Positions 8,783 to 57,900 of a stretch of DNA of 64,000 bases are shown here, piece by piece (the first letter of the stretch is position 1; each line of letters opens with the position of its first letter). The notes under the pieces were generated by a model, which was not told where the DNA came from, did not search any database, and saw nothing but the letters and a program-made list of their open reading frames with translations. Location: assembly GCA_965234725.1 (NCBI GenBank), contig CBDDUX010000029.1, positions 1,752 through 65,751 on the forward strand. Direction: 5' to 3'. This DNA comes from Thermoplasmatota archaeon. GTDB taxonomy: Archaea > Thermoplasmatota > Penumbrarchaeia > Penumbrarchaeales > Penumbrarchaeaceae. The position numbers and the translations under genes were made by a program.

Positions 8783-8794
8783 TTGATCAGGACT

Positions 8795-30770: not shown

Positions 30771-30771
30771 G

Positions 30772-32968: not shown

Positions 32969-32984
32969 TAGGGTAGAACAATGG

Positions 32985-33713: not shown

Positions 33714-33894
33714 CTTGTTTTCACCATAACCGAAGGACCAAATGATCCATACATATATACAGCACCGACTTAATATGAATTATCCGGATATTTAATACAA
33801 TAGAGATGGAATAATGAAAAAACAATAACTTGATGAATAACATTTGAAGAGTGAATAATTAAATAATTAAAAAACCACATTAGCAGGGGGTAAA

Positions 33895-36175: not shown

Positions 36176-36240
36176 AAAGATCCTCCTCGAAAGGTTTCCG
36201 GGCATGGAAAGGATACATCCCCCCTGCTATCATTTACATC

Positions 36241-36840
36241 ATGTTCTCGGTTGGGATCATCGGTCACTGGGTTCCTGCAACCCATGACCTAATGATATCC
36301 TTGACACCGATGTTCCTGTTCGGAATGGGAATATACATCATACATCCCTCCATATTGAAGAGGGATCATCGATTCCTGACATGGGTGCTGATCACCTATC
36401 TGATTACTTTTTCCATTGAAGCCATTGGTGTTGCGACGGGAGCTGTATTCGGTGAATACTCTTACGGATCAACATTGGGACTTATGGTCCTCGAAGTCCC
36501 GATAGTGATAGGATTCAACTGGGTGCTGGTGGTGGTGGGTGCGGTAATGGTTGCAAAAAAGATCTCGGGGAATATCTTTTTTGCATCGATCATTGGAGGC
36601 GGTCTATCCACTCTATTCGATTTCTTCCTTGAACCCGTGGCGATAAAACTTGACTACTGGGACTGGTCCGGAGGTAGCATTCCTGTCCAAAACTATGTTG
36701 CCTGGTTTGTGATTGCTACTGTCTTTTCCTATTCCTTCCTTAAGATGAAATTGAAGTGCAGGTCGGATCTGGCAATTCACTATCTCTTTGTCCAGGCCCT
36801 GTTCTTCATATCATTACAGATCTCTTTCATTGTTATTTGA
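36241..36840 (+). CDS. Carotenoid biosynthesis membrane protein, DUF422/Caroten_synth family (CruF-like carotenoid 1,2-hydratase candidate); N-terminus probably longer
   Basis: Motifs GAVFGEYSYGSTLG and FLEPVAIKLDYWDW. About 7 TM helices if the upstream in-frame stretch KGYIPPAIIYI (open back past 36208) is included. No canonical in-frame start lies upstream of the ATG at 36241. Confidence 0.7.
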   Translation: MFSVGIIGHWVPATHDLMISLTPMFLFGMGIYIIHPSILKRDHRFLTWVLITYLITFSIEAIGVATGAVFGEYSYGSTLGLMVLEVPIVIGFNWVLVVVGAVMVAKKISGNIFFASIIGGGLSTLFDFFLEPVAIKLDYWDWSGGSIPVQNYVAWFVIATVFSYSFLKMKLKCRSDLAIHYLFVQALFFISLQISFIVI

Positions 36841-42416: not shown

Positions 42417-42920
42417 ATGACCGAAGACAACAGGTTGACGGCAAGGGACAATGACCGAAGAGGTGTCTCTCCCTTCGGTCTCTGGAGCGATGTTGATGAT
42501 CTTTTCGATGCATTCAGAGGCGACATCGACAGGATATTCATGGACCCCTGGGCGAGGACCACAATAAGACCCATCAAGGTGAGGGCTCAGGCCACCTACA
42601 TGCCCATGAACATGGAAGATGCAGGTGACAAATTGATGCTGACAGTGGAGATGCCCGGTGTAAAGAAGGAAGATATCAAGCTCTCCATCAATGAGGACAT
42701 ACTCACGATTCGTGTGGACTCAAAAGAGGAGAAGAAGGAAGAGAAGAAGAACTATCTTCTCAGAGAGAGGTCCTCATACAAATGCGAAAGGTCCGTAAGA
42801 CTTCCAGCAGAGGTCCAGGGAGAAAATGTCGGAGCGAAGATGGAGGAAGGAGTTCTTCATATAACGCTTCCCAAGGTCCACCCGAAGAAGAAGGAGACAC
42901 ACGAGATCAAGATCTCCTGA
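42417..42920 (+). CDS. hsp20: Small heat-shock protein, Hsp20/alpha-crystallin family
   Basis: Alpha-crystallin core ..MPMNMEDAGDKLMLTVEMPGVKKEDIKLSINEDILTI...RSVRLPAEV...AKMEEGVLHITLPK. Confidence 0.88.
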   Translation: MTEDNRLTARDNDRRGVSPFGLWSDVDDLFDAFRGDIDRIFMDPWARTTIRPIKVRAQATYMPMNMEDAGDKLMLTVEMPGVKKEDIKLSINEDILTIRVDSKEEKKEEKKNYLLRERSSYKCERSVRLPAEVQGENVGAKMEEGVLHITLPKVHPKKKETHEIKIS

Positions 42921-43106: not shown

Positions 43107-44336
43107 ATGTTGAAGATCTTTGTGATCCAGCTGATCTCGGTTATGATCATGCTTTCATTCATCTTCGCCTCAGGAAAGGACCTTTCGGACCTTCCGGGCG
43201 ATGATGAGGACATTATCGGATACTGGATATTTGATGAAGGGACGGGGGAGAACACAACCGACCTGGCGAATGGAAAAACAATGGTCCTCGGGACCTCTTC
43301 ATCGAATGAGGATCAGGACCCGATATGGACGGAAGGTATTGAAGGGAAAGCCCTCCATTTCGATGGGGATGATGATGTGGCGATGGTAAGGAATTTCAAC
43401 CTTCCCTCCTCCGAGATGACCATGTCGTTCTGGATAAATACATCCTGGACAGTTGAAGGAAGGGTCCCTATTTCATATGCGAACATCTACGAGACCAACG
43501 AGTTCATGCTTGAAGATCCGGGGGACTTGAAGGTCCATATCAGAGGATTAACAAGGGATACCGATGTCTCCTTCAATGACGGGAAATGGCACAATATAGT
43601 ACTGACCTGGAGAGTGCTTGACGGGGACCTGAGAATTTACAAGGATACAAAGGAGGAATTCTCCGGGATTCTGGCAGTAGAGAATCCTATCAGGGGAGGT
43701 GGGACCCTTGTAATTGGTAATGATCAGGATGAGGTCGGAGGAGGCTTCGATGCTGACCAGGCCTTCAACGGGACCATTGATGAGCTTCTGATCATGGACA
43801 CCGTCTTGGAGGATGATGACATCTTGGATATTTTCGAGTGGGTATTACCACCTCCAGAGGTGATCGAGGCCACTCCTGAGGGGGGAAGACATCCCAATGC
43901 CACCATGATCAACATCACATTCAACGTTGACATGGACCGGTCCTCTGTCGAAGAAGCGTTCTCGATCCTGCCCGAGATCAACGGGACCTTCAGGTGGATG
44001 GAGAGGAGCTTCTCCTTCATTCCGGATGAGGACCTGGGATCCGATACGGAATACAAGGTAATGATCTCAAAAGAAGCAAAGGACATCTGGGGAAGGAAGA
44101 TAAAAGATGATATCCAGATCAAGTTCAAGACAGAGAAGATAGAGGAACCCGCACCGGTTGATGATGACGACACCACAACCGATGATGATACCACCGATGA
44201 TGAGGGAACTGACAAGGAGGATGAAAAGGACAATACGGCAACGGTCATGATGGTGCTAGCCCTCCTTGCAGCAGGTATGATCGCGATCATTTTGGCCCTT
44301 GCAGTGATTGCGAAATTGAATCACAGAGAGGACTAA
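43107..44336 (+). CDS. Membrane-anchored surface protein: signal peptide, LamG/concanavalin-A-like (Laminin_G_3) domain, Ig-like (SbsA-type) domain, Asp/Thr-rich stalk, C-terminal TM
   Basis: YWIFDEGTGENTTDLANG...WTEGIEGKALHFDGDDDVAMV...GKWHNIVLTW...GTIDELLIMD is the LamG_3 pattern. Stalk VDDDDTTTDDDTTDDEGTD. TM VMMVLALLAAGMIAIILALAVIA. The ATG at 43107 is preferred over the TTG at 43071. Confidence 0.8.
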   Translation: MLKIFVIQLISVMIMLSFIFASGKDLSDLPGDDEDIIGYWIFDEGTGENTTDLANGKTMVLGTSSSNEDQDPIWTEGIEGKALHFDGDDDVAMVRNFNLPSSEMTMSFWINTSWTVEGRVPISYANIYETNEFMLEDPGDLKVHIRGLTRDTDVSFNDGKWHNIVLTWRVLDGDLRIYKDTKEEFSGILAVENPIRGGGTLVIGNDQDEVGGGFDADQAFNGTIDELLIMDTVLEDDDILDIFEWVLPPPEVIEATPEGGRHPNATMINITFNVDMDRSSVEEAFSILPEINGTFRWMERSFSFIPDEDLGSDTEYKVMISKEAKDIWGRKIKDDIQIKFKTEKIEEPAPVDDDDTTTDDDTTDDEGTDKEDEKDNTATVMMVLALLAAGMIAIILALAVIAKLNHRED

Positions 44337-44379
44337 ACGATCAATGATCGCTCATTTCTCTGAATACCTGATCAAAGGA

Positions 44380-47300
44380 TCAGTCTTCGAAATGGTTCAG
44401 CATCCTGTCGTGGACCTCTCTCTTTTCCGGGTCCAGCAGGATTGTCTTTGCAGTATTGATCTCCCTTATCTTTTCATCGAAATCCGCTTCTGTATTTCGA
44501 TTGGTATTTCGATCCGGATGATAGATCCCCGCAAGGTTCCGATAAGCCTTCTTGATCTCCCAATCAGTGGCATTCCTTGAAACACCAAGGATCTGATAGC
44601 AGTTGATCTCCTTGGGGGACCTTCTGATACCAAATCCGGACATGATCTCTTTCATGGCGGACATATCACCGTATTCAAGCCCTCTTTTCTTCTTTCTCAG
44701 AACAAAGAATACTATGGAAGCTGAGATCGCTATCAATATAAGGATTGTCAAAAAGAAGATGAGGATCCCAGAGTAATTGTTCCCATCACTTTCTTTCTTT
44801 AAGAGTATCACATTTCCCAGATCGGCATTGTTTCCGGGAACAAGCGAAATCGTGGTATTGTAATCCAAAAATCCCTTTGCTTTGATCAGAATGGTCCAGT
44901 TCCCTTCAGGACCGCTGAAGGAGAACCTGCCATCCTCATCTGATAAGTATTCGGTTCCCTGGAAGGTTACCATTGCACCAGAAACAGTATTTCCTCCGGC
45001 ATCCATGATCCTTCCACTGGCAGTTCCAGGACCTACTGTTGTGAACTCATAGGATCCATTCTCCAGGGGATTCCCTGCGAGGTCCACTGCTGAAACATCG
45101 ATGGAATATATTTTCCCGATCTCCCAGACCGGAACCGGAGTGATGTATGCTTTGTTCCCGCTTACAACAGTCAGGAAGGAGATGCCGTCTATCATGACCG
45201 ATACATTGTAGACATTCTCAGAGAAAACGATCTCCAGGTCACTGTCAAGGGGAACCTTATCTCCGGAAGGGACCTTGTAATCGATCCTGGGCGAGACCGT
45301 GTCTGTCGTGAATGTGATATCCTTGGAAGCGGAGTTCCCCGCTTTATCCTCAAGGTAGAATGTGACCACATGGGATCCATCTTTAAGGTCCTTATACTCC
45401 ATAGGGCCTTCCAATTGAACTACAGACCTTCCCCGATCAATGGATATTTCTACTGTTCTGATCGGACTTCCAGTCCCATCCGAGACCCAATCCAGTAGAA
45501 TGCTGTCTTCCTTTAGGTAGGACCCCGATTCCGGAGTGATGGTTATCTCCGGTTGTGTCTGGTCCAGGATCAATGTCAATCTTGCAATTCCATTGTTTCC
45601 TGCCAGGTCCTTGAAGGAGATGAGAACCAGATATTCCCCTTCATCCAGAATGATCACCTCGTAGTCGCTCCTATCGGTTTGAATGGGATCCCTATCCTCC
45701 AAGAAAATGGTGAATCCATCATCAAGTCCCGATAGGTTATCGTAAGCATTCCATGAGATCGGAAAGGACCCGATGTTGGAATATAGGGGACCTGGGGCAT
45801 TAAAAACAAGGTAGGGAGAGGTCCGATCCACTGTGAAATTGACCGATACCTGAGATGATAATGAGATGGGGTTCTCTGACCTGATAGTCACGATGTGATC
45901 CCCCTCTGAAAGGTTCTCCAAATCATAGGAACCAAACTCCACTGGTACCACGAAGGGCTCCTCTTCATCCACCGATATCTCCACGAGAGATACTCCTGTT
46001 TCAACATCGATGCATGACCATTGTAGCTCGACCACCTCATCATTGAGGAAGGACCCTTCGATGGGGGTGTGAATGAAGATATCGGGTCCTGTCCCGTCCG
46101 GGATAGTCGATGCTGGAGCAGAGAGAAGGCCCTCTCCCATATCGTTGTAAGCAGATACCATGAAGGAGTGGATGATCCCATCCGAAAGGGAATGTATGGT
46201 CACCTTGTTCGTATCTGATACATCGAATTTCAGTTGGAAAGGACCTTTCCCCTCCTTCTGATATATCTTATATCCATCGAGGTCCCCTCCATACCTCTTT
46301 TCAGGTTCGGTCCATTCCAGAACAACCGAAGAGGACCCAGGAGTTATAGAAATTAGTTCAGGTGCATCAAAGGTTGGCATCGGGGTCCTGACTAGCGGAT
46401 AAGGATCCGATTCCCCTACTCCATGGAAGAGATATTCCTCATCCACGATTCCATCGAAATCCGTATCGGGAGATGTATGTTCGGAGTAGTGATTTCCCGA
46501 CCCTCCTGCGGAGTAGTAATTATTCTTGGAACCTTTCACCTGGGACGTTTCATAATCGTATTCATTTCCATTTGCGTTATTATTCCTCAGGAATGAATTT
46601 GAGATCACCATATTATCCTCTGCAGTACCGAAGAAATAAAGCCCATAGCCCTTGCTTTTCCAGATTATATTAAAGTTTATTGTCGACTCCCTTGTATCAT
46701 CCAGAGAAACACCAATATCGCAATCTGAAAAATTATTACTGGAAATGACTATGTCTTCCGAACCTCTATCGGTTACTCCTTCACCACAATCTAAAATCAA
46801 GCAGCCAACAATTGTAATATTGTTGGAAGACCTCGAATAAATTCCATAATCCATCCTCATTATTTCCTGATCTCTGATAAGGACATCTTCAGATGAATAT
46901 TGATAGATTCCATACTCAGATTTATTAACTGAATTATTTTCAATAATGCCTTTGTTAGAGTCAGAGAGATATATCCCTCTATTTATTGAATTCAAGGTAT
47001 TTCTTGTTAACAGAAAATCCGTTGAATAGGCCAATGTTACAGCCCTGCTTGAACTTTCAACAATGTTATCTATTATCTTCACATCATTGCAGTAATAACA
47101 CTTAATACAGTCTGTCTCAAAAGAACGGAAGATGTTACCTATGATGCGTAGTTTATTGATGGATCTCATTTGTCCAGGAAATGATATATTGCAATCTTCT
47201 ACCAATAAATTCCTGGAATCTTGAACTTCAAATCCAACCCCGTCATTTAGATCAAATTTACTTCCTATGATCGCAATATCTTCTGAGTTGAAGAGGGTAA

Positions 47301-49098
47301 GTCCTTCGCCATTGTTATTGGATACGTTTGAATTGATTATTGTAAGATTAGTGCAATCGAAAAAATGAAGCCCCTCACCTGAAGAAGAGTCTCTGACCTC
47401 CAATCCTTCAAGTAATACATTTTCACAATTCACAAAAGGGCTGTTGGTATTATTGTGAAATGACCATTCCTTCAGCGTAAGATTTGAACAATTGACGAAA
47501 AAATACTGGGATCCATCGGGAATTGGACCATGAGAGAGATCCATTCCTCCGAAATATCTGATGGGCTTCCCATTCAACGTATTATTAGGGGGAAGAACCT
47601 GTTCTGTTAAACCAGAATAATCAAAATGCATATCGACATCTAAGAGAATAGGAGGTCCCAAAATCTCATTTCCATAATAGGTATTTCCTGCAGATAGATC
47701 ATCAGATAAAATCGAATAGGAATTTGTATGGGATATTATTTGATTTTTATGGAAAATATTCCCATATGAATTTTCAATGTAGATTCCAAAGCTGTTCTCA
47801 CTTTCCAGAGTGCATTGATCAATCTTCACACCACTGGACAAGAATATCCTAAGTCCTTCTTTAAAAAATGAATAACAGGTAATGTTGGATAATAATGCAT
47901 TTTGTGTTCTTCTAACATGAATCCCCGGATCGTTGATCCTTGTATCCAATCTTCCATTTAAAATGTTTACATTTTCACAACTGTTTATACGGATACGGGA
48001 ATTTCTTCCTGAGATCTCGAATCCATCTATGTTACAATTATTAATCTCTTCAAGATTGAGACCACCATAACCATAATCCCTTCTTATACTAGTAATATTA
48101 ATAATCTTAATATCCGTCCCTGAATCCAGGTCTATTGAATCCCAATTAGTTCTTTCAAAATAACAACCGAAAATATTAATTTTTTCAAATGTGTATATTC
48201 CAATTGCATATTCATCATCATTTTTAAATTCTGATTCAATAATGGAAATATTTTCAACATGACTCATCTGAATAGAATTCCTGCACTTATTGAAAGTTGT
48301 ATTATCAATCATGATATCTTCACAATAAATGGATTCTAGTCCTTCGTCCATAATACTGAAATATGAATCAAAGATCTGAAAACCTGAACAATAATGAATA
48401 TTTATTCCATCCTTTACAGAATTGAAAAATGAACATCTTTTAATTATCATTTCATTAAGAATGGTGGAGGGTTCATTGGAGATTCCATAGCTCGTGTTAT
48501 AGAATGATGTGTTTTTAATCAATATATTCCATGCTTCATCGATATGAATGCACCTATAAGTTTCATGAAAACTGCAATTTGAAATAGTAATATTTCCGGA
48601 ATTCTTGAAATATACCAGCTCTTTATCATAGTAAATGTAATACTTTGAATTATTATAAAGATCACAATTTGAAATTAACAGATGGGATGAGATATTTCCA
48701 ATATAGATCGCATGGTCCTCACCATTGGCATCGATATCAAGGTCCTCGATTCTGTATGGATTCTCCTTCGTCCCGTTCCCGGTCCACCCCTCATCATCCA
48801 TCAGGTCCTCGAGATCGGTCTCATTGTTGATTATTATCGGGTCATGGTCGGTGAGGTTCCCTGAAACAGAGGACCTAATCATGGGAAGATCCTCTTCCAT
48901 GAAGATATCGAGGTCCTCATCTTCATCGAACTGATAAGGGATTCCCTCTCCTTGATCGAAAAGGATCCAAAAGGGACCTGCCAGAAGCAGGACCGTCAGT
49001 ATTAACGCATCGGTCCTCATCTTTCCCGACTGGATATCTGGTTCACCGTATTTGACCCTAACGTTCATAGAAGACACTGGAATAGAAGGAAACGGCAT
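44380..49098 (-). CDS. Giant (1572 aa) surface protein: N-terminal anchor/signal, PbH1 beta-helix, FN3, Ig-like modules, CarboxypepD_reg-like domain, TM, cytoplasmic J-domain
   Basis: ORF track, continuous frame. Beta-helix coils throughout residues ~110-860. FN3 (VVLEWTEP...YKIYQKEG...FMVSAYNDMGEG). GTASGRIMDAGGNTVSGAMVTF (CarboxypepD_reg-like). TM ILIFFLTILILIAISASIVFFVL + RKKKRG. J-domain with HPD. A start at an internal Met (MRTDALILTVLLLAG, ~49020) is possible. Confidence 0.85.
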   Translation of the reverse strand: MPFPSIPVSSMNVRVKYGEPDIQSGKMRTDALILTVLLLAGPFWILFDQGEGIPYQFDEDEDLDIFMEEDLPMIRSSVSGNLTDHDPIIINNETDLEDLMDDEGWTGNGTKENPYRIEDLDIDANGEDHAIYIGNISSHLLISNCDLYNNSKYYIYYDKELVYFKNSGNITISNCSFHETYRCIHIDEAWNILIKNTSFYNTSYGISNEPSTILNEMIIKRCSFFNSVKDGINIHYCSGFQIFDSYFSIMDEGLESIYCEDIMIDNTTFNKCRNSIQMSHVENISIIESEFKNDDEYAIGIYTFEKINIFGCYFERTNWDSIDLDSGTDIKIINITSIRRDYGYGGLNLEEINNCNIDGFEISGRNSRIRINSCENVNILNGRLDTRINDPGIHVRRTQNALLSNITCYSFFKEGLRIFLSSGVKIDQCTLESENSFGIYIENSYGNIFHKNQIISHTNSYSILSDDLSAGNTYYGNEILGPPILLDVDMHFDYSGLTEQVLPPNNTLNGKPIRYFGGMDLSHGPIPDGSQYFFVNCSNLTLKEWSFHNNTNSPFVNCENVLLEGLEVRDSSSGEGLHFFDCTNLTIINSNVSNNNGEGLTLFNSEDIAIIGSKFDLNDGVGFEVQDSRNLLVEDCNISFPGQMRSINKLRIIGNIFRSFETDCIKCYYCNDVKIIDNIVESSSRAVTLAYSTDFLLTRNTLNSINRGIYLSDSNKGIIENNSVNKSEYGIYQYSSEDVLIRDQEIMRMDYGIYSRSSNNITIVGCLILDCGEGVTDRGSEDIVISSNNFSDCDIGVSLDDTRESTINFNIIWKSKGYGLYFFGTAEDNMVISNSFLRNNNANGNEYDYETSQVKGSKNNYYSAGGSGNHYSEHTSPDTDFDGIVDEEYLFHGVGESDPYPLVRTPMPTFDAPELISITPGSSSVVLEWTEPEKRYGGDLDGYKIYQKEGKGPFQLKFDVSDTNKVTIHSLSDGIIHSFMVSAYNDMGEGLLSAPASTIPDGTGPDIFIHTPIEGSFLNDEVVELQWSCIDVETGVSLVEISVDEEEPFVVPVEFGSYDLENLSEGDHIVTIRSENPISLSSQVSVNFTVDRTSPYLVFNAPGPLYSNIGSFPISWNAYDNLSGLDDGFTIFLEDRDPIQTDRSDYEVIILDEGEYLVLISFKDLAGNNGIARLTLILDQTQPEITITPESGSYLKEDSILLDWVSDGTGSPIRTVEISIDRGRSVVQLEGPMEYKDLKDGSHVVTFYLEDKAGNSASKDITFTTDTVSPRIDYKVPSGDKVPLDSDLEIVFSENVYNVSVMIDGISFLTVVSGNKAYITPVPVWEIGKIYSIDVSAVDLAGNPLENGSYEFTTVGPGTASGRIMDAGGNTVSGAMVTFQGTEYLSDEDGRFSFSGPEGNWTILIKAKGFLDYNTTISLVPGNNADLGNVILLKKESDGNNYSGILIFFLTILILIAISASIVFFVLRKKKRGLEYGDMSAMKEIMSGFGIRRSPKEINCYQILGVSRNATDWEIKKAYRNLAGIYHPDRNTNRNTEADFDEKIREINTAKTILLDPEKREVHDRMLNHFED
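44407..44604 (-). other. J-domain (DnaJ N-terminal-type domain) forming the cytoplasmic tail of the 1572-aa protein
   Basis: NCYQILGVSRNATDWEIKKAYRNLAGIYHPDRNTNRNTEADFDEKIREINTAKTILLDPEKREVHD. HPD codons at 44512-44520 (minus strand). Confidence 0.9.
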
Positions 49099-49129
49099 GA
49101 AATTGAGATGTTATAGATTTGAAGAACAA

Positions 49130-49141
49130 CCTTTTAAAAGG
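49130..49141. promoter_or_regulatory. Perfect 12-nt palindrome CCTTTTAAAAGG in the 87-nt divergent intergenic region between two giant genes (candidate shared TATA element)
   Basis: Read directly. It lies 32 nt from the ATG at 49098 (minus gene) and 45 nt from the TTG at 49186 (plus gene). Confidence 0.35.
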
Positions 49142-49185
49142 CGAGGTGACTTGGATAAATAGGGTTCGATTCTGGGGGGTTATGT

Positions 49186-52100
49186 TTGTTCACTCGAAAT
49201 AAAGCTGCGACAGCCTGTTTATTAATGATTATTTTGACAATGGGTTCATTTCTTCCATTTTGCATTGATTCCGAAGCGGAACCCGTCATTGAAACCGAGG
49301 ATACCAATATCCCTGTTTTCAAAGTGATGGATCATCAAATCGGGTCCTATCCGGGAACCATCTATTACGTCGGAGGATCAGGACCTGGCAACTATACCAC
49401 CATACAACAGGGGGTTGATGCGGCATCGGACGGCGATATGGTCCTCCTGTCCCCCAAGACATATTATGAAACGATAATGATCACTTCTGAGATCTGGATA
49501 ATGGGAAACGGTTCGACCATTTCCCCCCCACTTGAAATAAACCCGGTTGCCTTCACTTTAAATGCGGACAATGTTACAATAACTGACCTAATGATCAGGG
49601 GTTATTACGTTGCTATCCAGTCCACATATTATGGGCACAATATCACTAACAATGTATTTTCCGACAACCAAAGGGATTTGATTATTGATGTCAATATAAA
49701 TGACATCCATACTTCCAGGTCATTCAGCGGTATCCGGATCCTGGATAACATCATAATGAGATCGTCACCATCATCCAGTATGGAAGTAACGGTGAGTCTG
49801 ATATCAGATAATGAGAACACCACCAATATCAAGACAGGAGATGTCATTCTATCGGGGAATGATTTCACTTCATCTTCATTATCTGGTGATCTCTTCTATT
49901 TCTCCATGAACGTGATGTCAATGGGGGGGGGATCTTTGGATATTGGAAATTTCAAGGCAACGGATAATGAGATGTCGGGAGCGGGGAGGGGTATTTACTT
50001 CTTTTCTGATATTGGGATGCTCACGGATGTAAAGGTCACGGTGGGTGACTTCATTATCTTGAACAACAATATCACCGATTTCGGAAATATAGGCCTGGCT
50101 TTGGATTATTACAATGTTAACACCGTATATGGATCAACGAACATAAGGATGGGTGAGGTCCGTATTTACAATAACCTTTTAAGGTCAGATAATCCAGCAT
50201 CCGGAATAACTATCCCTGCATATTCACTTTGGTCCAATTTTAATGATGACTCTTCAATGATCTGCGGAAATCTGACGATCAGCAATAATATCATCGATGT
50301 CCTGAACGAAGGTGTTGAAGTCTTTTTCATATTACCTGGCATCAATATATATGATAACGTCAGAGTGATCTCACAGAACACCTATATCAGCAACAACTGG
50401 ATAAAAAACTCCAGGAGCGGGATCTATGTTGAAATTGACCGGTTTGAAGCTCTTTATGAAAATGTCACTTGTTCCATTGGAGATATCACAATAATAAATA
50501 ATACGGTCAATAGTACTTCGATCCCCGTTACTGTGAACGGTTATGGCTTGGGCAACGATATGCACGGTAACTCAAGTTTCATGATGGGAGACATCACCAT
50601 TACTGAAAATGACCTCATGACCGATATGTACTCCACCTTGGCAAACGGTATATCCTTTAATATGAACAAAGTTGGACATCTCCTCTATGATAACTCAAGT
50701 GTGAGTATTGGAATTATGAAGATCAATAAGAACTCGATACATTCATACCAGGGTATCAGTTTCTCCCAGTTCCTGAAAATTGGAAGTGAACTATACGGAT
50801 GGTCTTCATTTTCTATGAAAGGGATCAATGTTTCTGAAAATAACATATGGTCAGAAAGTTATGGGATTACCATACACACTTTTTCAGAGTTCGGCAGCAA
50901 CCTCTACGGTTCGTCAACTGTTCAGATCAGAGAGATCGGGATCAAGAAAAATGCGATCTGGTCTCACGGAGATGGGATATTCATCAATCATCTGGAAGAA
51001 TTCGGTTACCGGATGTCCGACCTATCATCAATGACAATGATGGACATAGTCATTTCAGAAAACAATATTTGGTCCTCAAGTGGGGGGATCCACATCTACC
51101 AGATCAATACCTGGGGTGTATTGATGACGGGGGGATCATCCTTTACTTTTGGATCAATTTACATTCATGATAACTTCCTCTGGGCATTGGAACAAGGGAT
51201 CATGATCGAAAGCATCTCAAATTTAGGATTGGAACTTTGGGGAACAGCCACCTTCACAATGGAAGATATCGACATAAGTCACAACAAGATCAGATCCGAA
51301 TACAATGGCATCCATCTGGAAAGCCTGGATACATTTGGGACCCATATCTACGAAGAGGGCTCATTTGAAATGGGTTCTATCATGATCAGAGATAACGACG
51401 TCATATCCAATGAGACTGGTGTTTTTCTTTCTCAAGTATTTAATATCGGATGTTATCTGATGGATAATGCCAGCTTCTCCATGGAAGATATCAGTATCAT
51501 GGGTAATTCAATTAAATCATTGAGTTATGGCATCTATATTGGATATACCTACCTAGTTGGGTCATTCCTTGAAGATAACTCCTCATACCAGGGTGGTTCC
51601 GTATCACTGACAGAGAACTCTGTTGTATCTGGGGACCAGGGGATCCATATAGAATACATCAACAGCTTCGGATCCTTCCTCACGGGGGAGGCTACTTTCC
51701 AAATGCAAGACATCATGATCTGTGGAAATGGCATCATCTCGGAAAACGAAGGGGCCCTGATCCAGAACATCGGAACCATAGGGTACCAATTGTCCGGATA
51801 TTCATCTACCACAATGGGGGTAATATCTCTCAGTGAAAATATTGTCAGGACCAATTTAACTGGGATCATGCTTTCGGATATATCTCAGATAGGTATCTGG
51901 ATGGAAGATGCCACCGTTGTAAAATTCGGCGGTATCCACATGAATAACAACTCGGTGAATTCCAAAAATGATGGAGTGGTCCTGGGGCCCCTATCATATT
52001 TCGGGAATGAGAATTCGGGAAATTCAGTATCCGAATTTGGAAATATCACATTGGATGGCAATACCGTGGATTCCGGTAATCGGGGAGTTGGATTCGACAA

Positions 52101-54882
52101 CCTGAGGACATTTTTCAGCCATTTGACCGATTCTGCAAATTCGGTCTTAGGCACTATCTCTTTTGTGAAGAATGATATCATTTCCGAAGGTGCGGGAGTG
52201 TTCCTGAACAATATAATGAACACGGGTCAAATGTCGAGGGATTCCTCATGGGGGATGATCGAGGGGGTCCGGATCAAAGGAAATTCCATCAGGTCCAATG
52301 GGAGCGCCATAGAATCCAACGCACACAATAGATTCGGTAATGAATTAGATGGTTCTGCGATCATGAGCATGGGGGCCTGGAAGATCGAAGACAACGACAT
52401 TCATGCTGATGATTACGGCCTGGACATCGACCATGATATGATCGGTGATGGGATGATATCCGGACAGGTGGTATTAGAGGATCTGATCATCTCCAATAAC
52501 AGATTCGACACCGGGAAAGGGATCAGAACAAATTATACAACCTCCACACTTACAAGTTATTCGAATGTCACCATAGGAGATGTGAACCTCATCGACAACA
52601 CGTTCATGAGGACCTCGGATCAGGATATGGTCCTTGTGAATTTCAAGACCGATGCAAGAAGCTATTCCAGAGTTAAGATCGGATCGACACTCATTGAGGG
52701 GAATGGCAGGTTATCCTCAAACCTCTCTGGCATACACATTGCTTATTCCAAATATGAACAGGGATCCGGTATCTCCAGAATAGGTCCAGTCAATATCATC
52801 TCAAATAATATCACGGACTGCGGTACCGGGATAGAATTGGAAGGAGTGGTGACCGCCGAAATATACCTCAACAACTTCATCAACAACCTCCAGGACCTTG
52901 AACTGGGTTCAACATCGGTTTCACTGATCTCCCCTCATCCGATCTGGTACAGGCATGGAATGAAGAACTTCTCCTCTGAACTGGGCAACTACTGGGATAC
53001 GTATTTTGGACCCGATCTGAACGATGACGGAATAGGGGATAATCCTTTCAATACAGGGTCCGGAACGGATACCAAACCTCTGGTGAAAGGCACATGGAAT
53101 TATCTTCCTCCCTGGAATGATATCACCCCTCCTGATGTCAGGATCATATCACCGGGAAATGGATCATTCCTCAGGAGCCAGAACATCACATTGAATTGGG
53201 AAAGTATTGATGATCTTCTTGGAATTGAGAAACACTGGGTCAGATCGGACAACGGACCATGGATCGATGTTGGAATGTCCCATTCACATGATTTCACATA
53301 TCTGACCGAGGGCCCCCACACTTTGACAGTAAGGGCCAGGGATATGGCCGGGAACGAAGAACAGGTCTCCGTCACGATCACCATTGATCTGACCGGACCA
53401 GATATCCATATCTTATCACCCGTGACTGGTTCCGCTTTCAACGTCACATCTATCCAGCTGAGCTGGTCCGGTTCGGATCCTCTTTCAGGAATATCAGGAT
53501 ATTCTGTCGCTATTGGGAACGGGTCATTCTCGGATCTTGGTATGTCGACCTCAACGGTCCTGACAGGACTGACAGAAGGGATGCACCATATCAGCTTGAA
53601 AGCAACCGATAATGTTGGAAACCATATGACCGAGATGATAACCATATTTATCGATCTGACGCCACCGGAGATCGGGTTCATCCATCCTGAAATGGATATG
53701 GTCATCATAAGGGACCGATTGAATGCTTCCTGGTATGGGCTCGGAGGTCTGACCCCAATGGCTTCATATCAGATATCCATAGATGGAGACAATTCTACGG
53801 ACAAGGGAGAAGTGACATTCCATCTTTTCGAGGACCTGTCAACGGGCCAGCATGTACTTTACCTGATTGGATCCGATCTGGCGGGGAATAGAAATTCCAC
53901 TTCTGTGACCTTCACGGTGGATATAACCGCCCCAGGAGTAGTCATCCTCTATCCGGGGGATGGTTCCCGTATCAATTCAACTTCCATTGAAGCGAATTGG
54001 GGAGCAAACGGGCTTATCCATCCGGTGGAAAGGGTCGAATACAGACTTGATGGCGGGACCTGGACCCCAGGTGTTAATGACTACGCCATCCTGACGAACC
54101 TTTCGGAAGACGATCATACGTTGGACGTGAGAGCAATAGATAGTAAGGGAAACACGGCTGTTGCCACCTCTCATTTCACTGTTGACATTACATTGCCAAT
54201 AATTGTCTCCATATCACACGAGGGGACCTCGGCTGTGGCAAAGGGTCCTATCGTGATCGTTTTCTCCGAGGAAATGGCATCTGGATATGCGATCCTCAAC
54301 GGTGTGGAATTGGAAAAAGAACTGATCGGCAGCACCCTGTCATTGGAAATGGCAAAGATGTCCCCGGGAACGACCTACACCCTGGAATTAACTGCAAGGG
54401 ACCTTGCCGGAAACGAGATCAAAGAGACATTGACATTCACAACTGCATTCAAAGGGACCGTTTCCGGAAGGATCGTGGATAAGAATGGAGATCCCGTCCC
54501 GGGTGCAAGGGTGGTTTTCGATAGTGGTGAAGAGGTAACTGTGAACGATGATGGATCCTTCTCGGTGGAAGTTGAGGCCGGTTCCAGGACGGCAAAGGTG
54601 TATGATAAGGATGGTAACGAGATAGGTTCATTCGATTTCGAGGTTATCGGAGGAGATGATAATGAAACAGGTGACATCGAGGTCGAACCAAAGGAGAAGG
54701 AAGAGGGATCGAACTGGTGGATTGCTATAGTCGTTGCAGTAGCTATTATGCTTCTTCTCATGGCAGTGATCGCTTTCATCCTGATCTCGAAGGGAAAGGA
54801 GACTGAAGAGGAAGAATTCGAGGACGATGAATGGGAGAATGAGGACTTTGATGATGAGGGGTGGGATGATGATGAGTTTTGA
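49186..54882 (+). CDS. Giant (1898 aa) surface protein: signal peptide, beta-helix with an unusual 37-aa repeat solenoid, Ig-like modules, SbsA-Ig-like and CarboxypepD_reg-like domains, TM, acidic-aromatic cytoplasmic tail
   Basis: TTG start preceded by GGGGGGT (49174-49180). Signal KAATACLLMIILTMGSFLPFCIDSEA. Repeats (see the repeat feature at 50572..52140). NDDGIGDNPF cap. Repeated IDLTGPDI / IDLTPPEI / VDITAPGV Ig-module starts. GTVSGRIVDKNGDPVPGARVVF. TM WWIAIVVAVAIMLLLMAVIAFILIS. Tail EEEEFEDDEWENEDFDDEGWDDDEF. Confidence 0.85.
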   Translation: MFTRNKAATACLLMIILTMGSFLPFCIDSEAEPVIETEDTNIPVFKVMDHQIGSYPGTIYYVGGSGPGNYTTIQQGVDAASDGDMVLLSPKTYYETIMITSEIWIMGNGSTISPPLEINPVAFTLNADNVTITDLMIRGYYVAIQSTYYGHNITNNVFSDNQRDLIIDVNINDIHTSRSFSGIRILDNIIMRSSPSSSMEVTVSLISDNENTTNIKTGDVILSGNDFTSSSLSGDLFYFSMNVMSMGGGSLDIGNFKATDNEMSGAGRGIYFFSDIGMLTDVKVTVGDFIILNNNITDFGNIGLALDYYNVNTVYGSTNIRMGEVRIYNNLLRSDNPASGITIPAYSLWSNFNDDSSMICGNLTISNNIIDVLNEGVEVFFILPGINIYDNVRVISQNTYISNNWIKNSRSGIYVEIDRFEALYENVTCSIGDITIINNTVNSTSIPVTVNGYGLGNDMHGNSSFMMGDITITENDLMTDMYSTLANGISFNMNKVGHLLYDNSSVSIGIMKINKNSIHSYQGISFSQFLKIGSELYGWSSFSMKGINVSENNIWSESYGITIHTFSEFGSNLYGSSTVQIREIGIKKNAIWSHGDGIFINHLEEFGYRMSDLSSMTMMDIVISENNIWSSSGGIHIYQINTWGVLMTGGSSFTFGSIYIHDNFLWALEQGIMIESISNLGLELWGTATFTMEDIDISHNKIRSEYNGIHLESLDTFGTHIYEEGSFEMGSIMIRDNDVISNETGVFLSQVFNIGCYLMDNASFSMEDISIMGNSIKSLSYGIYIGYTYLVGSFLEDNSSYQGGSVSLTENSVVSGDQGIHIEYINSFGSFLTGEATFQMQDIMICGNGIISENEGALIQNIGTIGYQLSGYSSTTMGVISLSENIVRTNLTGIMLSDISQIGIWMEDATVVKFGGIHMNNNSVNSKNDGVVLGPLSYFGNENSGNSVSEFGNITLDGNTVDSGNRGVGFDNLRTFFSHLTDSANSVLGTISFVKNDIISEGAGVFLNNIMNTGQMSRDSSWGMIEGVRIKGNSIRSNGSAIESNAHNRFGNELDGSAIMSMGAWKIEDNDIHADDYGLDIDHDMIGDGMISGQVVLEDLIISNNRFDTGKGIRTNYTTSTLTSYSNVTIGDVNLIDNTFMRTSDQDMVLVNFKTDARSYSRVKIGSTLIEGNGRLSSNLSGIHIAYSKYEQGSGISRIGPVNIISNNITDCGTGIELEGVVTAEIYLNNFINNLQDLELGSTSVSLISPHPIWYRHGMKNFSSELGNYWDTYFGPDLNDDGIGDNPFNTGSGTDTKPLVKGTWNYLPPWNDITPPDVRIISPGNGSFLRSQNITLNWESIDDLLGIEKHWVRSDNGPWIDVGMSHSHDFTYLTEGPHTLTVRARDMAGNEEQVSVTITIDLTGPDIHILSPVTGSAFNVTSIQLSWSGSDPLSGISGYSVAIGNGSFSDLGMSTSTVLTGLTEGMHHISLKATDNVGNHMTEMITIFIDLTPPEIGFIHPEMDMVIIRDRLNASWYGLGGLTPMASYQISIDGDNSTDKGEVTFHLFEDLSTGQHVLYLIGSDLAGNRNSTSVTFTVDITAPGVVILYPGDGSRINSTSIEANWGANGLIHPVERVEYRLDGGTWTPGVNDYAILTNLSEDDHTLDVRAIDSKGNTAVATSHFTVDITLPIIVSISHEGTSAVAKGPIVIVFSEEMASGYAILNGVELEKELIGSTLSLEMAKMSPGTTYTLELTARDLAGNEIKETLTFTTAFKGTVSGRIVDKNGDPVPGARVVFDSGEEVTVNDDGSFSVEVEAGSRTAKVYDKDGNEIGSFDFEVIGGDDNETGDIEVEPKEKEEGSNWWIAIVVAVAIMLLLMAVIAFILISKGKETEEEEFEDDEWENEDFDDEGWDDDEF
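50572..52140 (+). repeat. Core of a tandem ~37-aa (111-nt) protein repeat array, consensus (S/A)SFxMxDIxIxxNxIxSxxxGIxIxxxxxxGxxLxGx
   Basis: Unit starts that I located in the DNA: 50572, 50695, 50803, 50911, 51025, 51136, 51247, 51358, 51469, 51580, 51691, 51802, 51913, 52024. The ten from 51025 to 52024 are spaced exactly 111 nt apart. Looser copies extend from about 49830 to about 52890. Confidence 0.85.
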
Positions 54883-54927: not shown

Positions 54928-57900
54928 TCACTGAAGGTATTGACCTGACTGAGGTCCATCACCAGGAATGTTTGAGACCTGGGCCATTGGTTGCGGTAAT
55001 CCTTGTGGATATTGGCTTGGAGGTAATGGTTGTTGAACGTAACCACCCGTAATTCCCTGCCCTGTTTGCTGTCCCTGTCCCATTGGTGGATACCAATTCT
55101 GCTGCAAGGATTGAGGAGGCGTTTGCATTGTGGATGCCTCCTTCTTTTCTCTCCGTAATGTTAAAAGTACAACGACCATAAGGATCAACAGTAGGACAGC
55201 GATCCCGATCGTTATCGGAAGGAACAGGTCCATGCTGTTTTCTGCGGAAGACCCCGCCTTTATGGAGAGTACCTCGGAATCAGGGGCCTTTCCCACGGAT
55301 GTCACGCCAGCGATCCGATAATTATATCGGACCCCTTCTTTCACATTTTCGTCTATATATGAACCCTTGCCTGCCGGGACCGTGGCAATGATCTGGGGGT
55401 CCCTTCCCTCGATCCATCTGGAGATCTCTACTGCAATGAACGGACTTCCTCCATTGTCATCAGGAAGTGTCCAGCTGATGTTAATGAAACCTCTTCCCGA
55501 TGTAAGTACCAGTTCAAGCGGTGTACCGGGAGAAGACACCGGGATCACCCTTGCCGGATCCGACATTGGGCCCTCCCCCACTTTATTGGATGCGGTCACC
55601 GTTATTGTATATTCGACACCGTTCTCAAGTCCGTCGATCATATAACTGGTGGTAGATATGTTCGATTCCAGAAGTTCCAGAGAACTACCATCCGGAGCAA
55701 GATAAATATTGTAAGAAACAAACCCCACTCCTCCAAGTTCCATGGGAGGCTTCCAATCGACCTTTATCCCACCGTCATTCGGAGTTGTGAGGAGGATCTC
55801 AGGCATTCCCGGGATCGAGAGTGGTATGACTGTCCTGACCTCGCTGAAATCACTCATTGAATATGAATTAAAGGCTCTCACTGCCACGTAGTAGGTCCTT
55901 CCATTGGTGAGCCCGGCCTCATGATGGGTAAGTCCTGATGTCTCTCCCACATTCGATAGGTCCGCTGGTGAACTCCCAAGGTAGACCATATAAGATACCA
56001 AAGGATCGCCTCCATCATCGCTCGGTTGGGACCATGAAATGGTCACCTCTCCATTACCTCCTGAAATAACTATTTCCCTTGGAACGGATGGAGGACCAAG
56101 AGGAGTTGCAGTCACTATCTCCGAAATGGGGCCTTCCCTGAATTCGTTGGACGCCGTAACATAGAATGAATAGGTCTGGCCGTTCACCAACCCTGACATC
56201 TTAAAATCAGTATCATCGATCCCTGTTTCAAACAGAATACTTTCATCATCATCAGGACCACCAACATAGACATTGTAAGTGACAGAATCATCACCACCAA
56301 GGTCGGATGGTGCCCTCCATTTGAGATCTGCCTTCCCCTCTCCTGCCACGACCGATAGCTCTCTGGGTTCGGAGGGTATCCCAATGGGTCTTGAACCCAC
56401 CTTCAATGACTGAGGGCCTTCTCCCTTATCATTTACCGCAGAAACCATGAACAGGTAATGGACTCCATTGACGAGATCCGTCAGATTGAGGTTTGTCTGT
56501 TTGAGACCGACGGCTTTAGTGGAGAATGCGGACCCGCCGGCGCTGATGTAGATATTGTACTTCAGGTCCTCTTCTCCTCCGTTATCCATGGGGGTATCCC
56601 AGTATAAGTGAACATACCCCGGCCCTCTAATAGCTGTCAGATTTTCCGGGGCATCCGGTATTTTCAAAGGTCTCAAGGGAATTGGATTGGATAAAGGACC
56701 TTCTCCCATCCCATTGGTTGCCGACATTGCGTAATAATAGACCTGCCCGTTGACAAGGTCTTCATCCGTGAAGGAGAAATCCTCCAATCCGTCCATGATG
56801 GAAACGAGTCCATCTGGATTCGGCCCACGGTATATATTGAAGGTTATCTCGATATCACCACCAAGGTCTTCCGGGTCCTTCCAATTCAATGTGACAAAGC
56901 TATCACCTGTTGAATAACTGGTGAACTCCGGGGCGGAGGGGGGTCTTGCCGGAATACCCATCACGATCTTGGTCGGGGGTGATTCCCCCACCATGTTCTT
57001 CGCTGTCACATAGTAATAGTATCTCTCTCCGTTGTCAAGGTCCTGGTGAACGAATGAAGTGGTGGTAGCATTTACTTCACCCACCAATTCGAAGGTCCTG
57101 TTCAAGGGTGACATGTAGATATTGTAACCGGTGATCGATTCGTTTCCATCCCTCAGAGGAGTTGACCATGAAAGTGTTAATTCCTGATCCCCCTTTTCAG
57201 CTGAGGGTGAAAGTGGTTTGGAAGGGGGGAACGAATATATCTTGATCCGGCAGATGAAACAGTCTCCATTGCTGAATGTGTCATCATATGCCTCTTCATG
57301 GACTGGAAGATCAGATGAATAAGTAAACCCACTCAGATAAAGGCCATCATTATCATCGAATCCCATCCAGTTGGCGACATCATAATCATTACCACCGAAA
57401 TAGGATGAGAATTCGACATCATCCTTCTCATGATTGAAAATTACAAGGAAGGCATCTTGGTACCCATCCGCCGCTGTATCCAATGGATATTCCGAAAGTG
57501 GGAAATCGGTGGAAGTGGTAGTGCCGCACACCATGACCTTCCCCTCGGGATCAAGGTCAATATAACGCCCTTCCTCATAATCAGAACCTCCGAGGAAAGT
57601 ACCGTACTTAACTGACGAACCCTGCCTGTTGAATTCGATCACGAAGGCGTCCTGGTAACCGCTCATCATCGATTGATATGCGTCCTTTGTAACCGGAAAG
57701 TCGCTCATATATGTATTCCCGGTAAGTAAGATCGAATCACTAGTTATTCTTAGAGAATTGGGCTGAGTATCCTCGTGAATGAATGTCGAAAAATCAAGAC
57801 CTCCATCGCTATCAAATCCTGTTAGAGTTCCCGTCATCCATCTCGAATTCGTGGACTGCTTGAATGCTCCATTGGTGGTTGGAAAGTCCATGCTGGCAGA

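Follow-up and report, generated by a model that had tools for sequence, protein, structure and literature searches.

A gene on the reverse strand of a 64,000-nucleotide stretch of Thermoplasmatota DNA, analysed here in its entirety and referred to as the window, encodes a giant surface protein that ends in a J-domain, which is the module responsible for activating the chaperone Hsp70/DnaK. Our preferred reading, to which we assign a probability of roughly 0.6, is that this protein is a class C J-protein with a type I anchor, which brings DnaK to the inner face of the membrane at giant surface-protein clusters and acts mainly in trans, in a physiological role that we propose below. What appears to be new is the use of a J-domain as the cytoplasmic tail of giant, fast-evolving surface proteins with predicted glycosylation, carried on a portable TM-linker-J cassette that recurs in at least four Thermoplasmatota subfamilies.

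Domain organization and membrane topology

The open reading frame at 44380..49098 (-) translates into 1572 aa with zero internal stops, followed by a stop codon at 44380-44382; all features given below lie on the same strand. The true start is probably M27 (MRTDALILTVLLL..., 49020), which would produce a 1546-aa protein, because the homologues P0033 and P0034 begin at the equivalent MRSIAVIL and because the two ATGs further upstream, at 49098 and 49068, lack conservation in the homologous allele L001. The N-terminal signal peptide MRTDALILTVLLLAGPFWILFDQGEG (aa 27-52, 48943..49020), assigned by hydropathy with the KD peak in windows starting at aa 29-31, is conserved in P0033, P0034 and L003. 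The ectodomain begins with a right-handed parallel beta-helix of the PbH1/NosD-like type (approximate bounds aa 120-880, 46459..48741), matched in Pfam by five stretches each of Beta_helix PF13229 (E 1e-48) and NosD PF05048 (E 2e-38). It continues with a fibronectin type III domain (aa 911-998, 46105..46368; PF00041, E 4e-10), an Ig-like array of Big_3_3, Big_13 and Big_5 (about aa 1000-1355, 45034..46101; PF19077 at E 1.5e-10, PF13205 and PF13750 weaker) and a membrane-proximal CarboxypepD_reg-like domain (aa 1361-1430, 44809..45018; PF13620, E 1e-9).

The sole C-terminal transmembrane (TM) helix, ILIFFLTILILIAISASIVFFVL (aa 1445-1467, 44698..44766), has a mean KD value of 3.04 over 19 aa, is helical in the AF2 model (pLDDT about 88) and is found in all 17 tails of the family alignment on which our invariance counts are based. 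Behind it come a basic stop-transfer, RKKKRG, with a 25-aa conserved linker (LEYGDMSAMKEIMSGFGIRRSPKEI; together aa 1468-1498, 44605..44697), delimited by charge count, model and alignment; the J-domain with helices I-IV (aa 1499-1564, 44407..44604); and, 3' of helix IV, a C-terminal extension, RMLNHFED (44383..44406), that is conserved in the alignment, with DRMLNHF unchanged across the six closest relatives. The HPD codons (aa 1527-1529, 44512..44520) are invariant in 17/17 tails. The first-pass annotation had described an uninterrupted reading from ectodomain through TM helix to J-domain, and both the translation and the homologous loci bear this out; its positions for the HPD codons and for the start of the J-domain at 44604 stand, and only its upper limit of the TM helix, 44772, was two codons too far. 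No PGF motif precedes the C-terminal TM helix, the sequence there being DGNNYSG, and 105 aa extend beyond the helix, unlike in PGF-CTERM/archaeosortase-processed surface proteins, which end shortly after it. Within the window, neither Rfam nor a tRNA scan gave any match.

The tail is a canonical class C (type III) J-domain with an intact HPD. Pfam PF00226 scores 68.9 bits (E 4e-19) for the full protein and 73.9 bits (E 1e-20) for the tail alone, against a gathering score of 27.8, in agreement with the first-pass assignment of the HPD-containing tail as a J-domain. The best PDB match of the tail by phmmer is Thermus thermophilus DnaJ (4j7z, E 1e-14), and 5nro_B is matched at E 1.5e-11. The AF2 model of the tail (pLDDT 82.6, rising to 94-96 in helices II and III) contains the four J helices, with the HPD between predicted helices 80-94 and 102-123 in tail-model numbering, and Foldseek superposes it on 4j7z with an rmsd of 1.0-1.5 A over 68 columns and on the DnaK-bound Escherichia coli J-domain (5NRO_B) with an rmsd of 1.8 A. 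The J-domain occupies the extreme C-terminus, and Pfam detected none of the class A/B modules (DnaJ_C PF01556, the CXXCXGXG zinc finger PF00684 or a G/F region) in the protein at E <= 0.01. PMC8215388 names five basic DnaK-contact positions in the J-domain, R22, K26, R27, K48 and K51. Sequence alignment indicates that three of the five are kept (R22, K26 and K48 are K, R and R here) and that the equivalents of R27 and K51 are Asn, so that partner affinity or specificity may differ.

Only two hydrophobic segments, the signal peptide and the C-terminal TM helix, are present in the protein by KD hydropathy. The ectodomain contains 32 N-x-S/T sequons compared with 18.6 ± 3.8 in shuffled sequences (z about 3.5), a density of 2.3 per 100 aa, whereas the corresponding densities of neighbouring cytoplasmic proteins are 0-0.7. 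Five K/R residues (RKKKR) fall within the 15 aa directly after the TM helix, and a K/R cluster lies behind the TM helix of every family member in the tail alignment. Because of the two hydrophobic segments, the sequons on the outer side and the basic cluster after the TM helix, the J-domain is predicted to be cytoplasmic, the only orientation consistent with the data; the prediction uses the simple rules of hydropathy, positive-inside and sequons rather than a dedicated predictor, and it extends the positive-inside argument with which the J-domain had originally been placed in the cytoplasm. With its signal peptide, its C-terminal TM helix with basic stop-transfer and its sequon-rich ectodomain, the protein has the features of an archaeal type I surface glycoprotein, and it is predicted to be a membrane glycoprotein of type I orientation (N-out, C-in), with an ectodomain of about 1,400 aa outside and a tail of 105 aa inside.

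The J-domain is held about 30 residues from the membrane by a linker of 31 aa. AF2 predicts a helix in this linker at tail residues 44-57 (pLDDT 78-88), with a hydrophobic moment of only 0.26-0.58, which gives no clear sign of the strong amphipathicity that would speak for membrane docking, and Pfam found neither TerB nor any other domain in the TM-J interval. One linker Phe is invariant in 17/17 tails and the TM-to-HPD spacing is 59-67 aa throughout the alignment. This conserved pre-J helix would likely be a specificity or regulatory element.

Conservation of the fusion and its family

The same fusion is intact, with conserved synteny, in L004 (1503 aa), L005 (1507 aa) and L006 (1528 aa), which are three independent Thermoplasmatales or metagenome assemblies. 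In a fourth, L003, the C-terminal half of the fusion is intact and its frame is continuous there. It is conceivable in principle that a chimera, a missed stop or a frameshift has fused two separate genes, one for a surface protein and one for a small membrane J-protein: P0077 and P0127 are standalone membrane J-proteins whose J-domain is similar, L001 encodes a stub, TM helix and J-domain alone, and L002 has a stop codon five codons ahead of its TM helix. However, a chimeric join or missed stop across 44600-44800, which the first-pass annotation had wished to see excluded, is excluded at the assembly level by the uninterrupted frame of L004, L005, L006 and the C-terminal half of L003. These four other independent assemblies come from different samples, their ectodomain identities are 37-80% and codon-level purifying selection is found throughout, and an artefactual origin is effectively refuted already.

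The tail is under stronger purifying selection than the ectodomain and evolves more slowly. Among the homologous loci, amino acid identity is 68-93% in the tail versus 37-85% in the ectodomain, and dN/dS is 0.06-0.14 versus 0.18-0.31. The L001 allele, known from a single 1.9-kb Logan contig, lacks the whole ectodomain, apparently through a deletion with its breakpoint inside the CarboxypepD_reg-like domain (about 44904) and a junction at window positions 49047|44909; it retains a short stub, the TM helix and the J-domain, with a dN/dS of 0.10 in the tail. The L003 allele has a frame-broken beta-helix, with frameshifts that could be consensus errors, and it too has kept the tail (dN/dS 0.14).

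As judged from their sequences, the J-tailed surface proteins are a small, undescribed and conserved family. An exhaustive profile search of sequence databases identified about 20 further clusters with this architecture, and all of the named ones are from Thermoplasmatota MAGs and are annotated just as 'DnaJ/NosD/beta-helix domain-containing'. At least four subfamilies combine differing ectodomains with the same TM helix, basic patch, linker helix and J-domain; they include group A (P0047, P0055 and P0068), group B (P0049, P0052 and P0054) and group C (L008 5262-9950, L009 171-4946 and P0115). A large secreted ectodomain, mostly a beta-helix, is retained in all four subfamilies, and P0047 has a J tail without a beta-helix, carrying Ig-like domains only. 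The TM-linker-J cassette is always found inside clusters of giant surface-protein genes, the majority of which do not possess it, and the MAG GCA_048569615.1 encodes three J-tailed genes. A word-indexed profile search with the 17-tail alignment, which is not a census, gave mainly short DnaJ fragments of a generic kind and failed to recover the long members of the family, and the sole match of the tail in a metagenome contig scan was an unrelated J-domain with 30% identity. No paper describing this architecture was found in the literature searched, and the accessible text of the PNAS 2023 JDP survey does not mention beta-helix, NosD or fibronectin partners. The first-pass statement that no membrane-tethered J-protein was known with its J-domain at the end of a giant adhesin-like ectodomain is therefore correct for the literature searched and incorrect for the sequence databases, where the approximately 20 Thermoplasmatota MAG clusters do so.

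Genomic context, proposed mode of action and alternatives

The neighbouring giants consist of an ectodomain and TM helix followed by a short tail without a J-domain, and they include paralogous beta-helix proteins of up to 1,978 aa. Those at 662-6598, 49186-54882 and 54928-59340 have the same signal peptide, domain vocabulary, sequon density, CarboxypepD_reg stalk, single C-terminal TM helix and basic stop-transfer, but they end 15-75 aa past the TM helix in low-complexity acidic or Q/P-rich sequence with no recognisable domain, at the point where the J-tailed protein has a folded co-chaperone domain. In the window and in L001-L006, tblastn with E. coli DnaK gave no match, and a J-domain query for a second J-protein matched only the tail itself. 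Thermoplasmatales have the DnaK-DnaJ-GrpE system as an ancestral trait, and it occurs in Thermoplasmatota, certain members of which possess additional copies of Hsp70 (PMC3564930, PMC12874294). The J-domain might be served by a specialised Hsp70 paralogue, by analogy with HscC, the partner of DjlB and DjlC. Two genes downstream of the J-tailed gene is one for HSP20, both in the window and in L003, L004 and L006; because it is absent from L005 and from the group A, B and C loci, this linkage is plain synteny of close relatives, and we reject HSP20 as a functional partner. Separately, Fic genes are situated near J-tailed genes in L007, L008 and L009, and the window and L001-L006 contain no Fic gene; as L008 is the orthologue of L009, the proximity counts as two independent cases and is a lead only.

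In the proposed mode of action, the J-domain would dock on ATP-bound DnaK and trigger its ATPase, and each copy of the protein would provide a fixed membrane-proximal Hsp70 loading site. The cassette would act mainly in trans, concentrating DnaK on the inner side of the membrane at the places of synthesis and anchoring of giant secretory and membrane proteins, and its job would be the biogenesis or quality control of membrane-proximal clients and not merely its own export. This would be the action of a DjlA-like membrane-tethered J-protein on a different scaffold. Activity mainly in trans is suggested because the same cassette is placed on different ectodomains, within gene clusters that mostly do without it, and is still conserved in alleles whose ectodomain has been deleted or disrupted. 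Retention of large ectodomains by all four subfamilies suggests a degree of coupling in function across the membrane, for which a model of the protein as a mere 'DnaK anchor' has no explanation.

Several other roles can be envisaged. The C-terminal J-domain might, as was the main idea of the first-pass annotation, aid export in cis by loading DnaK onto its own 1,500-aa precursor, keeping the slow-folding beta-helix unfolded and translocation-competent without SecA. Such a role would suit Archaea that lack SecA and Sec63 but possess DnaK, where post-translational secretion has been proposed in Haloferax (PMC2910488), and it would suit the large, mostly beta-helical secreted ectodomains of all four subfamilies. 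However, the J-domain is the last part of the protein to be synthesised, P0047 joins the tail to Ig-like domains only, and a strictly cis role is disfavoured because the neighbouring giants, including the paralogous beta-helix proteins of the same loci, have no J tail and because L001 and L003 maintain a constrained tail despite having no intact ectodomain or signal peptide; we consider it unlikely. We are slightly more doubtful still of an outside-in sensor, a coupling of surface binding to the chaperone network that the first-pass annotation had also raised, in which ligand binding or clustering of the ectodomain would alter presentation of the tail, for example by release of the pre-J helix, and DnaK recruitment or titration of a DnaK-bound regulator would report surface events. 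A regulatory element is suggested by the conserved linker helix with its invariant Phe and by a TM-to-J spacing that is fixed from one subfamily to another, an ectodomain is kept in every subfamily, and DjlA-DnaK input into the Rcs envelope-stress pathway is a precedent. Against this, no regulator, kinase or transcription factor is conserved beside the gene in the window and the homologous loci, and because the ectodomain is fast-evolving, mosaic and deleted or broken in some alleles, it is more in keeping with a diversifying protein exposed at the surface than with a dedicated receptor.

The tail might instead be a tag for self-turnover or quality control that draws DnaK to its own stub and directs damaged or wrongly inserted copies to membrane proteases (LonB, FtsH-like) or the proteasome. 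Hlj1 and DNAJB12, membrane-tethered eukaryotic J-proteins that face the cytosol, participate in ER-associated degradation, and the nearby HSP20 gene might be seen in the same light; but the HSP20 linkage is synteny, extraction of a glycosylated 1,400-aa ectodomain is implausible and most of the giants have no such tag, which makes this role very improbable. Least credible among functional explanations of the tail is a J-like relic that makes no Hsp70 contact, or a mere structural or oligomerisation element. It would account for Asn at the two basic helix II/III contact positions, yet Asn at the K51 position is a common consensus (KEINEAY), as in T. thermophilus DnaJ in the PDB-match alignment, and the HPD invariant in 17/17 tails, the low dN/dS of the tail and a J-domain entropy of 1.36 bits, the lowest among the tail segments, are contrary to loss of function.

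Relationship to known J-proteins and implications

Membrane-tethered J-proteins decide the site of Hsp70 action, and to our knowledge all those that have been characterised are small anchors or translocon subunits. Like the J-tailed giant, DjlA has a single TM helix followed by a C-terminal cytoplasmic J-domain, which in DjlA cooperates with membrane-associated DnaK; the cytoplasmic location in our case is predicted from charges and sequons, and the L001 allele (a short N-out stub, TM helix and J-domain) and the standalone P0077 have a DjlA-like topology. DjlA is a bacterial class C J-protein of the inner membrane with 'TerB-DnaJ' architecture reported from bacteria only (PMC10410713). It differs in having an N-terminal anchor, a near-zero ectodomain and a central TerB-like domain, for which the archaeal protein has no match; here the TM helix is the C-terminal anchor of a signal-peptide-bearing 1,400-aa ectodomain, the linker helix is family-specific and the hosts are archaeal. 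In E. coli DjlB/DjlC (with HscC), yeast Hlj1 and human DNAJB12/DNAJB14, a cytosol-facing J-domain directs Hsp70, in some cases a paralogue dedicated to it, to clients that are membrane proteins (PMC8215388). These proteins share with ours a cytosolic J-domain at the membrane, but their J-domain is N-terminal, their TM helix is C-terminal (tail-anchored/type II) and little extends beyond the membrane, whereas the order is reversed here and a giant ectodomain is added. Sec63, ERdj1 and Pam18 are likewise membrane-embedded J-proteins, located at translocation sites. Their J-domains lie in the ER lumen or the mitochondrial matrix, on the trans side from which Hsp70 pulls, in contrast to the cis-side (cytoplasmic) J-domain predicted here; we know of no ATP or Hsp70 outside the archaeal cell. 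Sec63 J-domains are weak phmmer matches in the PDB (E 1e-4), and Pfam found no Brl/Sec63 domain in the protein.

What drives post-translational translocation in Archaea is a long-standing question (PMC2910488). The J-tailed giants might be the membrane half of a SecA-independent system for handling large secretory proteins, with J-domains beside the translocon loading DnaK onto the precursors of neighbouring giants, or they might couple the state of the surface to Hsp70; either proposal is speculative and has the odds well against it. The 'NosD/DnaJ domain-containing protein' annotation hides this architecture. If the export or the sensing reading is true, the family would be the first concrete, testable link of Hsp70 to protein export or surface sensing in Archaea. 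If the tail works as we propose, these proteins would be the first archaeal membrane-localised Hsp70 recruiters and would physically link the cell surface to the chaperone network in organisms without SecA and Sec63.

Architecture and topology of the J-tailed protein

The minus-strand open reading frame 44380..49098 runs for 1572 codons without a stop, from a large ectodomain into a transmembrane (TM) segment and a C-terminal J-domain, just as the first-pass annotation had read it. Pfam places Beta_helix and NosD matches in five stretches of the N-terminal ~880 aa, followed by fn3 (aa 911-998), the Ig-like domains Big_3_3, Big_13 and Big_5, CarboxypepD_reg (aa 1361-1430) and a full-length match to DnaJ (PF00226; aa 1499-1564, 44407..44604), with the HPD motif at 44512..44520, all on the minus strand. 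The proposal that a J-domain with its HPD ends a beta-helix surface protein is confirmed by PF00226 scores of 68.9 bits (E 4e-19) in the whole protein and 73.9 bits when the search is confined to the last 130 aa (gathering score 27.8). A 19-residue hydropathy scan detected only two hydrophobic segments, the N-terminal signal-peptide core (aa 29-49) and the TM segment ILIFFLTILILIAISASIVFFVL (aa 1445-1467; 44698..44766), with RKKKRG directly after the latter. The coordinates initially assigned to the protein were right to within two codons, apart from its start. Because the homologues P0033 and P0034 begin at the position matching M27 (MRSIAVIL...) and neither of the two ATGs upstream of M27 is kept in the closely related contig L001, the true start is probably 49020, giving a protein of 1546 aa.

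The ectodomain contains 32 N-x-S/T sequons, compared with 18.6±3.8 when its sequence is shuffled at constant composition. In four cytoplasmic proteins of the window the density is 0-0.7 per 100 aa, and the single sequon of the J-domain is unconserved. There are five K/R in the 15 residues after the TM segment versus two in the 15 before. Taken together with the signal peptide, these simple rules predict an external ectodomain and a cytoplasmic J-domain, and so support the earlier placement by the positive-inside rule. To our knowledge, ATP and Hsp70 are available in the cytoplasm only.

An AF2 model built on an alignment of 17 tails (mean pLDDT 82.6) consists, in order, of the TM helix, a short linker helix (tail residues 44-57) and J helices I-IV. 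The best Foldseek matches in the PDB are J-domains throughout, including Thermus thermophilus DnaJ (4j7z; 1.0-1.5 A over 68 columns, 47-50% identity) and the DnaK-bound Escherichia coli J-domain (5nro_B; 1.8 A), and sequence searching agrees (E 1e-14). Escherichia coli DnaJ contacts DnaK through R22, K26, R27, K48 and K51 together with H33, P34 and D35 (PMC8215388). In the alignment, the window protein has K, R, N, R and N at the first five positions, thereby retaining three of the five basic contacts and the HPD catalytic motif; for K51, Asn is the usual consensus residue. Pfam found no class A or class B modules in the window protein, which by domain content is classified as a class C J-protein.

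Conservation of the fusion and its wider family

Tail-specific peptide patterns searched in the GTDB species-representative genomes led to three loci, all in Thermoplasmatales MAGs. The unbroken ectodomain-TM-J architecture recurs in the relatives' loci L004 (1503 aa) and L005 (1507 aa), and in L003 (CAWEDU010000017.1, Thermoplasmatales MAG MFD03804) the frame is continuous over the C-terminal 755 aa, from FN3 through TM to J. Full-length searches returned P0033 (Logan contig L006; 1528 aa, 56% identical to the window protein) and P0034, the L004 protein, both with precomputed Beta_helix, fn3, CarboxypepD_reg and DnaJ matches. Since four independent assemblies have the same frame (L003 for the C-terminal 755 aa), the chimeric join or missed stop that the first-pass annotation wished to exclude is ruled out at the assembly level.

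The window and L003-L006 share a gene order of Ig-rich giant, J-tailed giant, LamG/pentaxin surface protein, HSP20, metallo-beta-lactamase, HhH-GPD glycosylase and pyridine-nucleotide disulfide oxidoreductase. The HSP20 small heat-shock gene (42417-42920, plus strand), two genes downstream of the J-tailed gene, is also at that place in L003, L004 and L006 and is missing from L005 and more distant loci; its linkage is probably plain synteny. A GIDE-family (PF12483) membrane-protein gene lies directly downstream of the J-tailed gene in L006 (14590-15354) and in L002, a JGI 3300035633 contig (380-1132); none is found at the corresponding window position, where the gap (44337-44379) is just 43 bp. 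The L002 tail is 65% identical, with a stop five codons before the TM segment at the contig end (1-20), and the hydrophobic helix carries on upstream in an alternative frame. With only 15 nt to judge by, L002 could be a TM-J gene in its own right or the result of a frameshift. Elsewhere, the window has the content of an ordinary archaeal chromosome, encoding SRP54, phosphate transporters, flotillin, ADP-forming acetyl-CoA synthetase, and a photolyase and carotenoid cluster; no RNA genes were found in it. The stretch 28456-36840 comprises a DUF1722/2-thiouracil desulfurase gene, the photolyase gene and genes for lycopene cyclase, two phytoene-desaturase-like oxidases, phytoene synthase, a carotenoid biosynthesis protein and a desaturase-family protein, a hint that this archaeon lives exposed to light.

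An exhaustive HMMER profile search with the tail against 1.84 billion cluster representatives gave seven matches below 1e-30, six of them being the close family. The remaining one, P0040 (679 aa), is unrelated and has an unusual architecture of six near-identical tandem J-domain repeats, each with HPD. Second-tier matches (1e-15 to 1e-20) align over both linker and J-domain, always C-terminally. From sequences and gene contexts we defined group A (P0047, P0055, P0068; linker ...DREQMxEILxHFDV...), group B (P0049, P0052, P0054 and fragments; linker ...EDLxKLKEVFxHFxVG...) and group C (L008 5262-9950, L009 171-4946, P0115; longer acidic linker). All full-length members have a signal peptide, a large ectodomain, one TM segment, a K/R cluster and a J-domain with HPD; the short entries are fragments at contig ends. 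Most ectodomains combine a beta-helix with Ig-like domains, and that of P0047 has Ig-like domains only. The distance from TM to HPD stays constant, at 59-67 aa, in the close family and in groups A and B, which also share one invariant Phe in the linker helix. The source organism, wherever named, is "Thermoplasmatota archaeon", and product names are generic (DnaJ, NosD or beta-helix "domain-containing"). MAG GCA_048569615.1 encodes three J-tailed proteins, two in tandem. Tandem J-tailed pairs are found at L008 5262-13210 and L009 171-6828, the first gene of the tandem (1562 or 1591 aa) having the distinct long acidic TM-to-J linker of group C.

In the paralogous beta-helix giants beside J-tailed genes, and in all the window's other giants, the C-terminal TM segment is followed by just a short featureless tail. 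Standalone membrane proteins with a similar J-domain exist, P0077 with an N-terminal TM segment and the polytopic P0127 from Thermoplasmatota, which suggests that the cassette derives from a small membrane J-protein and was later recruited to anchor surface proteins.

Selection on the tail and alleles without an intact ectodomain

In codon alignments of the window gene with L001, L003, L006, L004 and L005, amino acid identity of linker plus J tail is 93, 87, 79, 79 and 68%, respectively, compared with 85, 80, 56, 47 and 37% for the ectodomain. Where dS is unsaturated, dN/dS is 0.06-0.14 for the tail versus 0.18-0.31 for the ectodomain. Judged by these values, and with housekeeping neighbours 77-92% identical in the same loci, the tail evolves in the manner of a housekeeping protein and the ectodomain in that of an exposed surface protein. 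Type I surface proteins with a canonical J-domain fused to their cytoplasmic end are therefore conserved and under selection as a fusion. GC content is 0.39 in the beta-helix-coding 5' part (46001-50000) versus 0.47 in the Ig and tail part (44001-46000), and the L003 orthologue is only 50% identical to the window protein over its first 276 aa (5816-6637), compared with 74% over its last 845 aa (7880-10408); the ectodomain looks mosaic or recombining.

L001, a 1870-bp contig from Logan SRR21856590 that is 92% identical to the window, joins position ~49047 to 44909 (window interval 44905..49047) at GG(T/G)GAAC microhomology. The deletion takes the start codon, the signal peptide and aa ~18-1398, that is, the whole ectodomain, and retains a stub, TM and J open reading frame of 169-180 aa beside an intact promoter region; dN/dS of this tail is 0.10. 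In L003, the beta-helix region 6640-8140 is colinear with P0034 and has at least five frame changes relative to it, the adjacent 1,898-aa open reading frame and the C-terminal 755 aa being intact. The frame changes reflect either decay of the ectodomain or locally faulty consensus calling in a hypervariable region.

A possible role at the membrane

No Hsp70 gene was found in the window or in L001-L006; DnaK, DnaJ and GrpE are present in all surveyed Thermoplasmatales and were inferred to be ancestral there (PMC3564930). Thermoplasmatota at large also have this system, some with additional Hsp70 copies (PMC3564930, PMC12874294). The tail would recruit and activate DnaK at the inner membrane face, making J-tailed proteins fixed DnaK-loading sites inside clusters of giant surface proteins. 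For their physiological role we infer, and favour, action in trans, similar to DjlA, in the biogenesis or quality control of membrane-proximal clients, with the conserved pre-J helix as a possible specificity or regulatory element. It is favoured because the data lean away from the J-domain serving strictly in cis as an export aid for its own protein. The J-domain is the last part made; most giants in the same loci, including beta-helix ones of up to 1,978 aa, manage without it; the same cassette stands behind different ectodomains; and the two natural alleles without an intact ectodomain, L001 and L003, keep a constrained tail. A strictly cis role is thus unlikely. Outside-in sensing is likewise improbable, and self-turnover very improbable.

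In group A, B and C loci, Fic-domain genes are found 1.7-6 kb downstream of J-tailed genes (L007 19932-21083, L008 16558-17703, L009 8499-9671), with the HPFxDGNGR motif intact; those of L008 and L009 are orthologous and that of L007 is different. Neither the window nor L001-L006 contains one. Metazoan FICD AMPylates the Hsp70 BiP, and by analogy the Fic proteins may be partners of J-tailed proteins, a lead to pursue.

Although the proposed mode of action, a membrane-tethered J-domain, is that of DjlA, the J-tailed protein differs in having neither a TerB domain nor an N-terminal anchor and in its archaeal hosts; "TerB-DnaJ" is reported from bacteria only (PMC10410713). DjlB, DjlC and Hlj1, unlike the J-tailed protein, are tail-anchored, and in Sec63, ERdj and Pam18 the J-domain is on the other side of the membrane. 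Full-text searches on J-domains in combination with archaea, transmembrane, beta-helix or extracellular domain revealed no published description of such an architecture. The first-pass view that no J-domain tail was known on a giant ectodomain thus holds for the literature searched and fails for the databases, where groups A, B and C share it. The J-tailed protein is thus a class C J-protein tethered to the membrane on a scaffold that is novel, and we know of no membrane-tethered class C J-protein characterised in Archaea. The fusion is solid and conserved, and is open to simple biochemistry.
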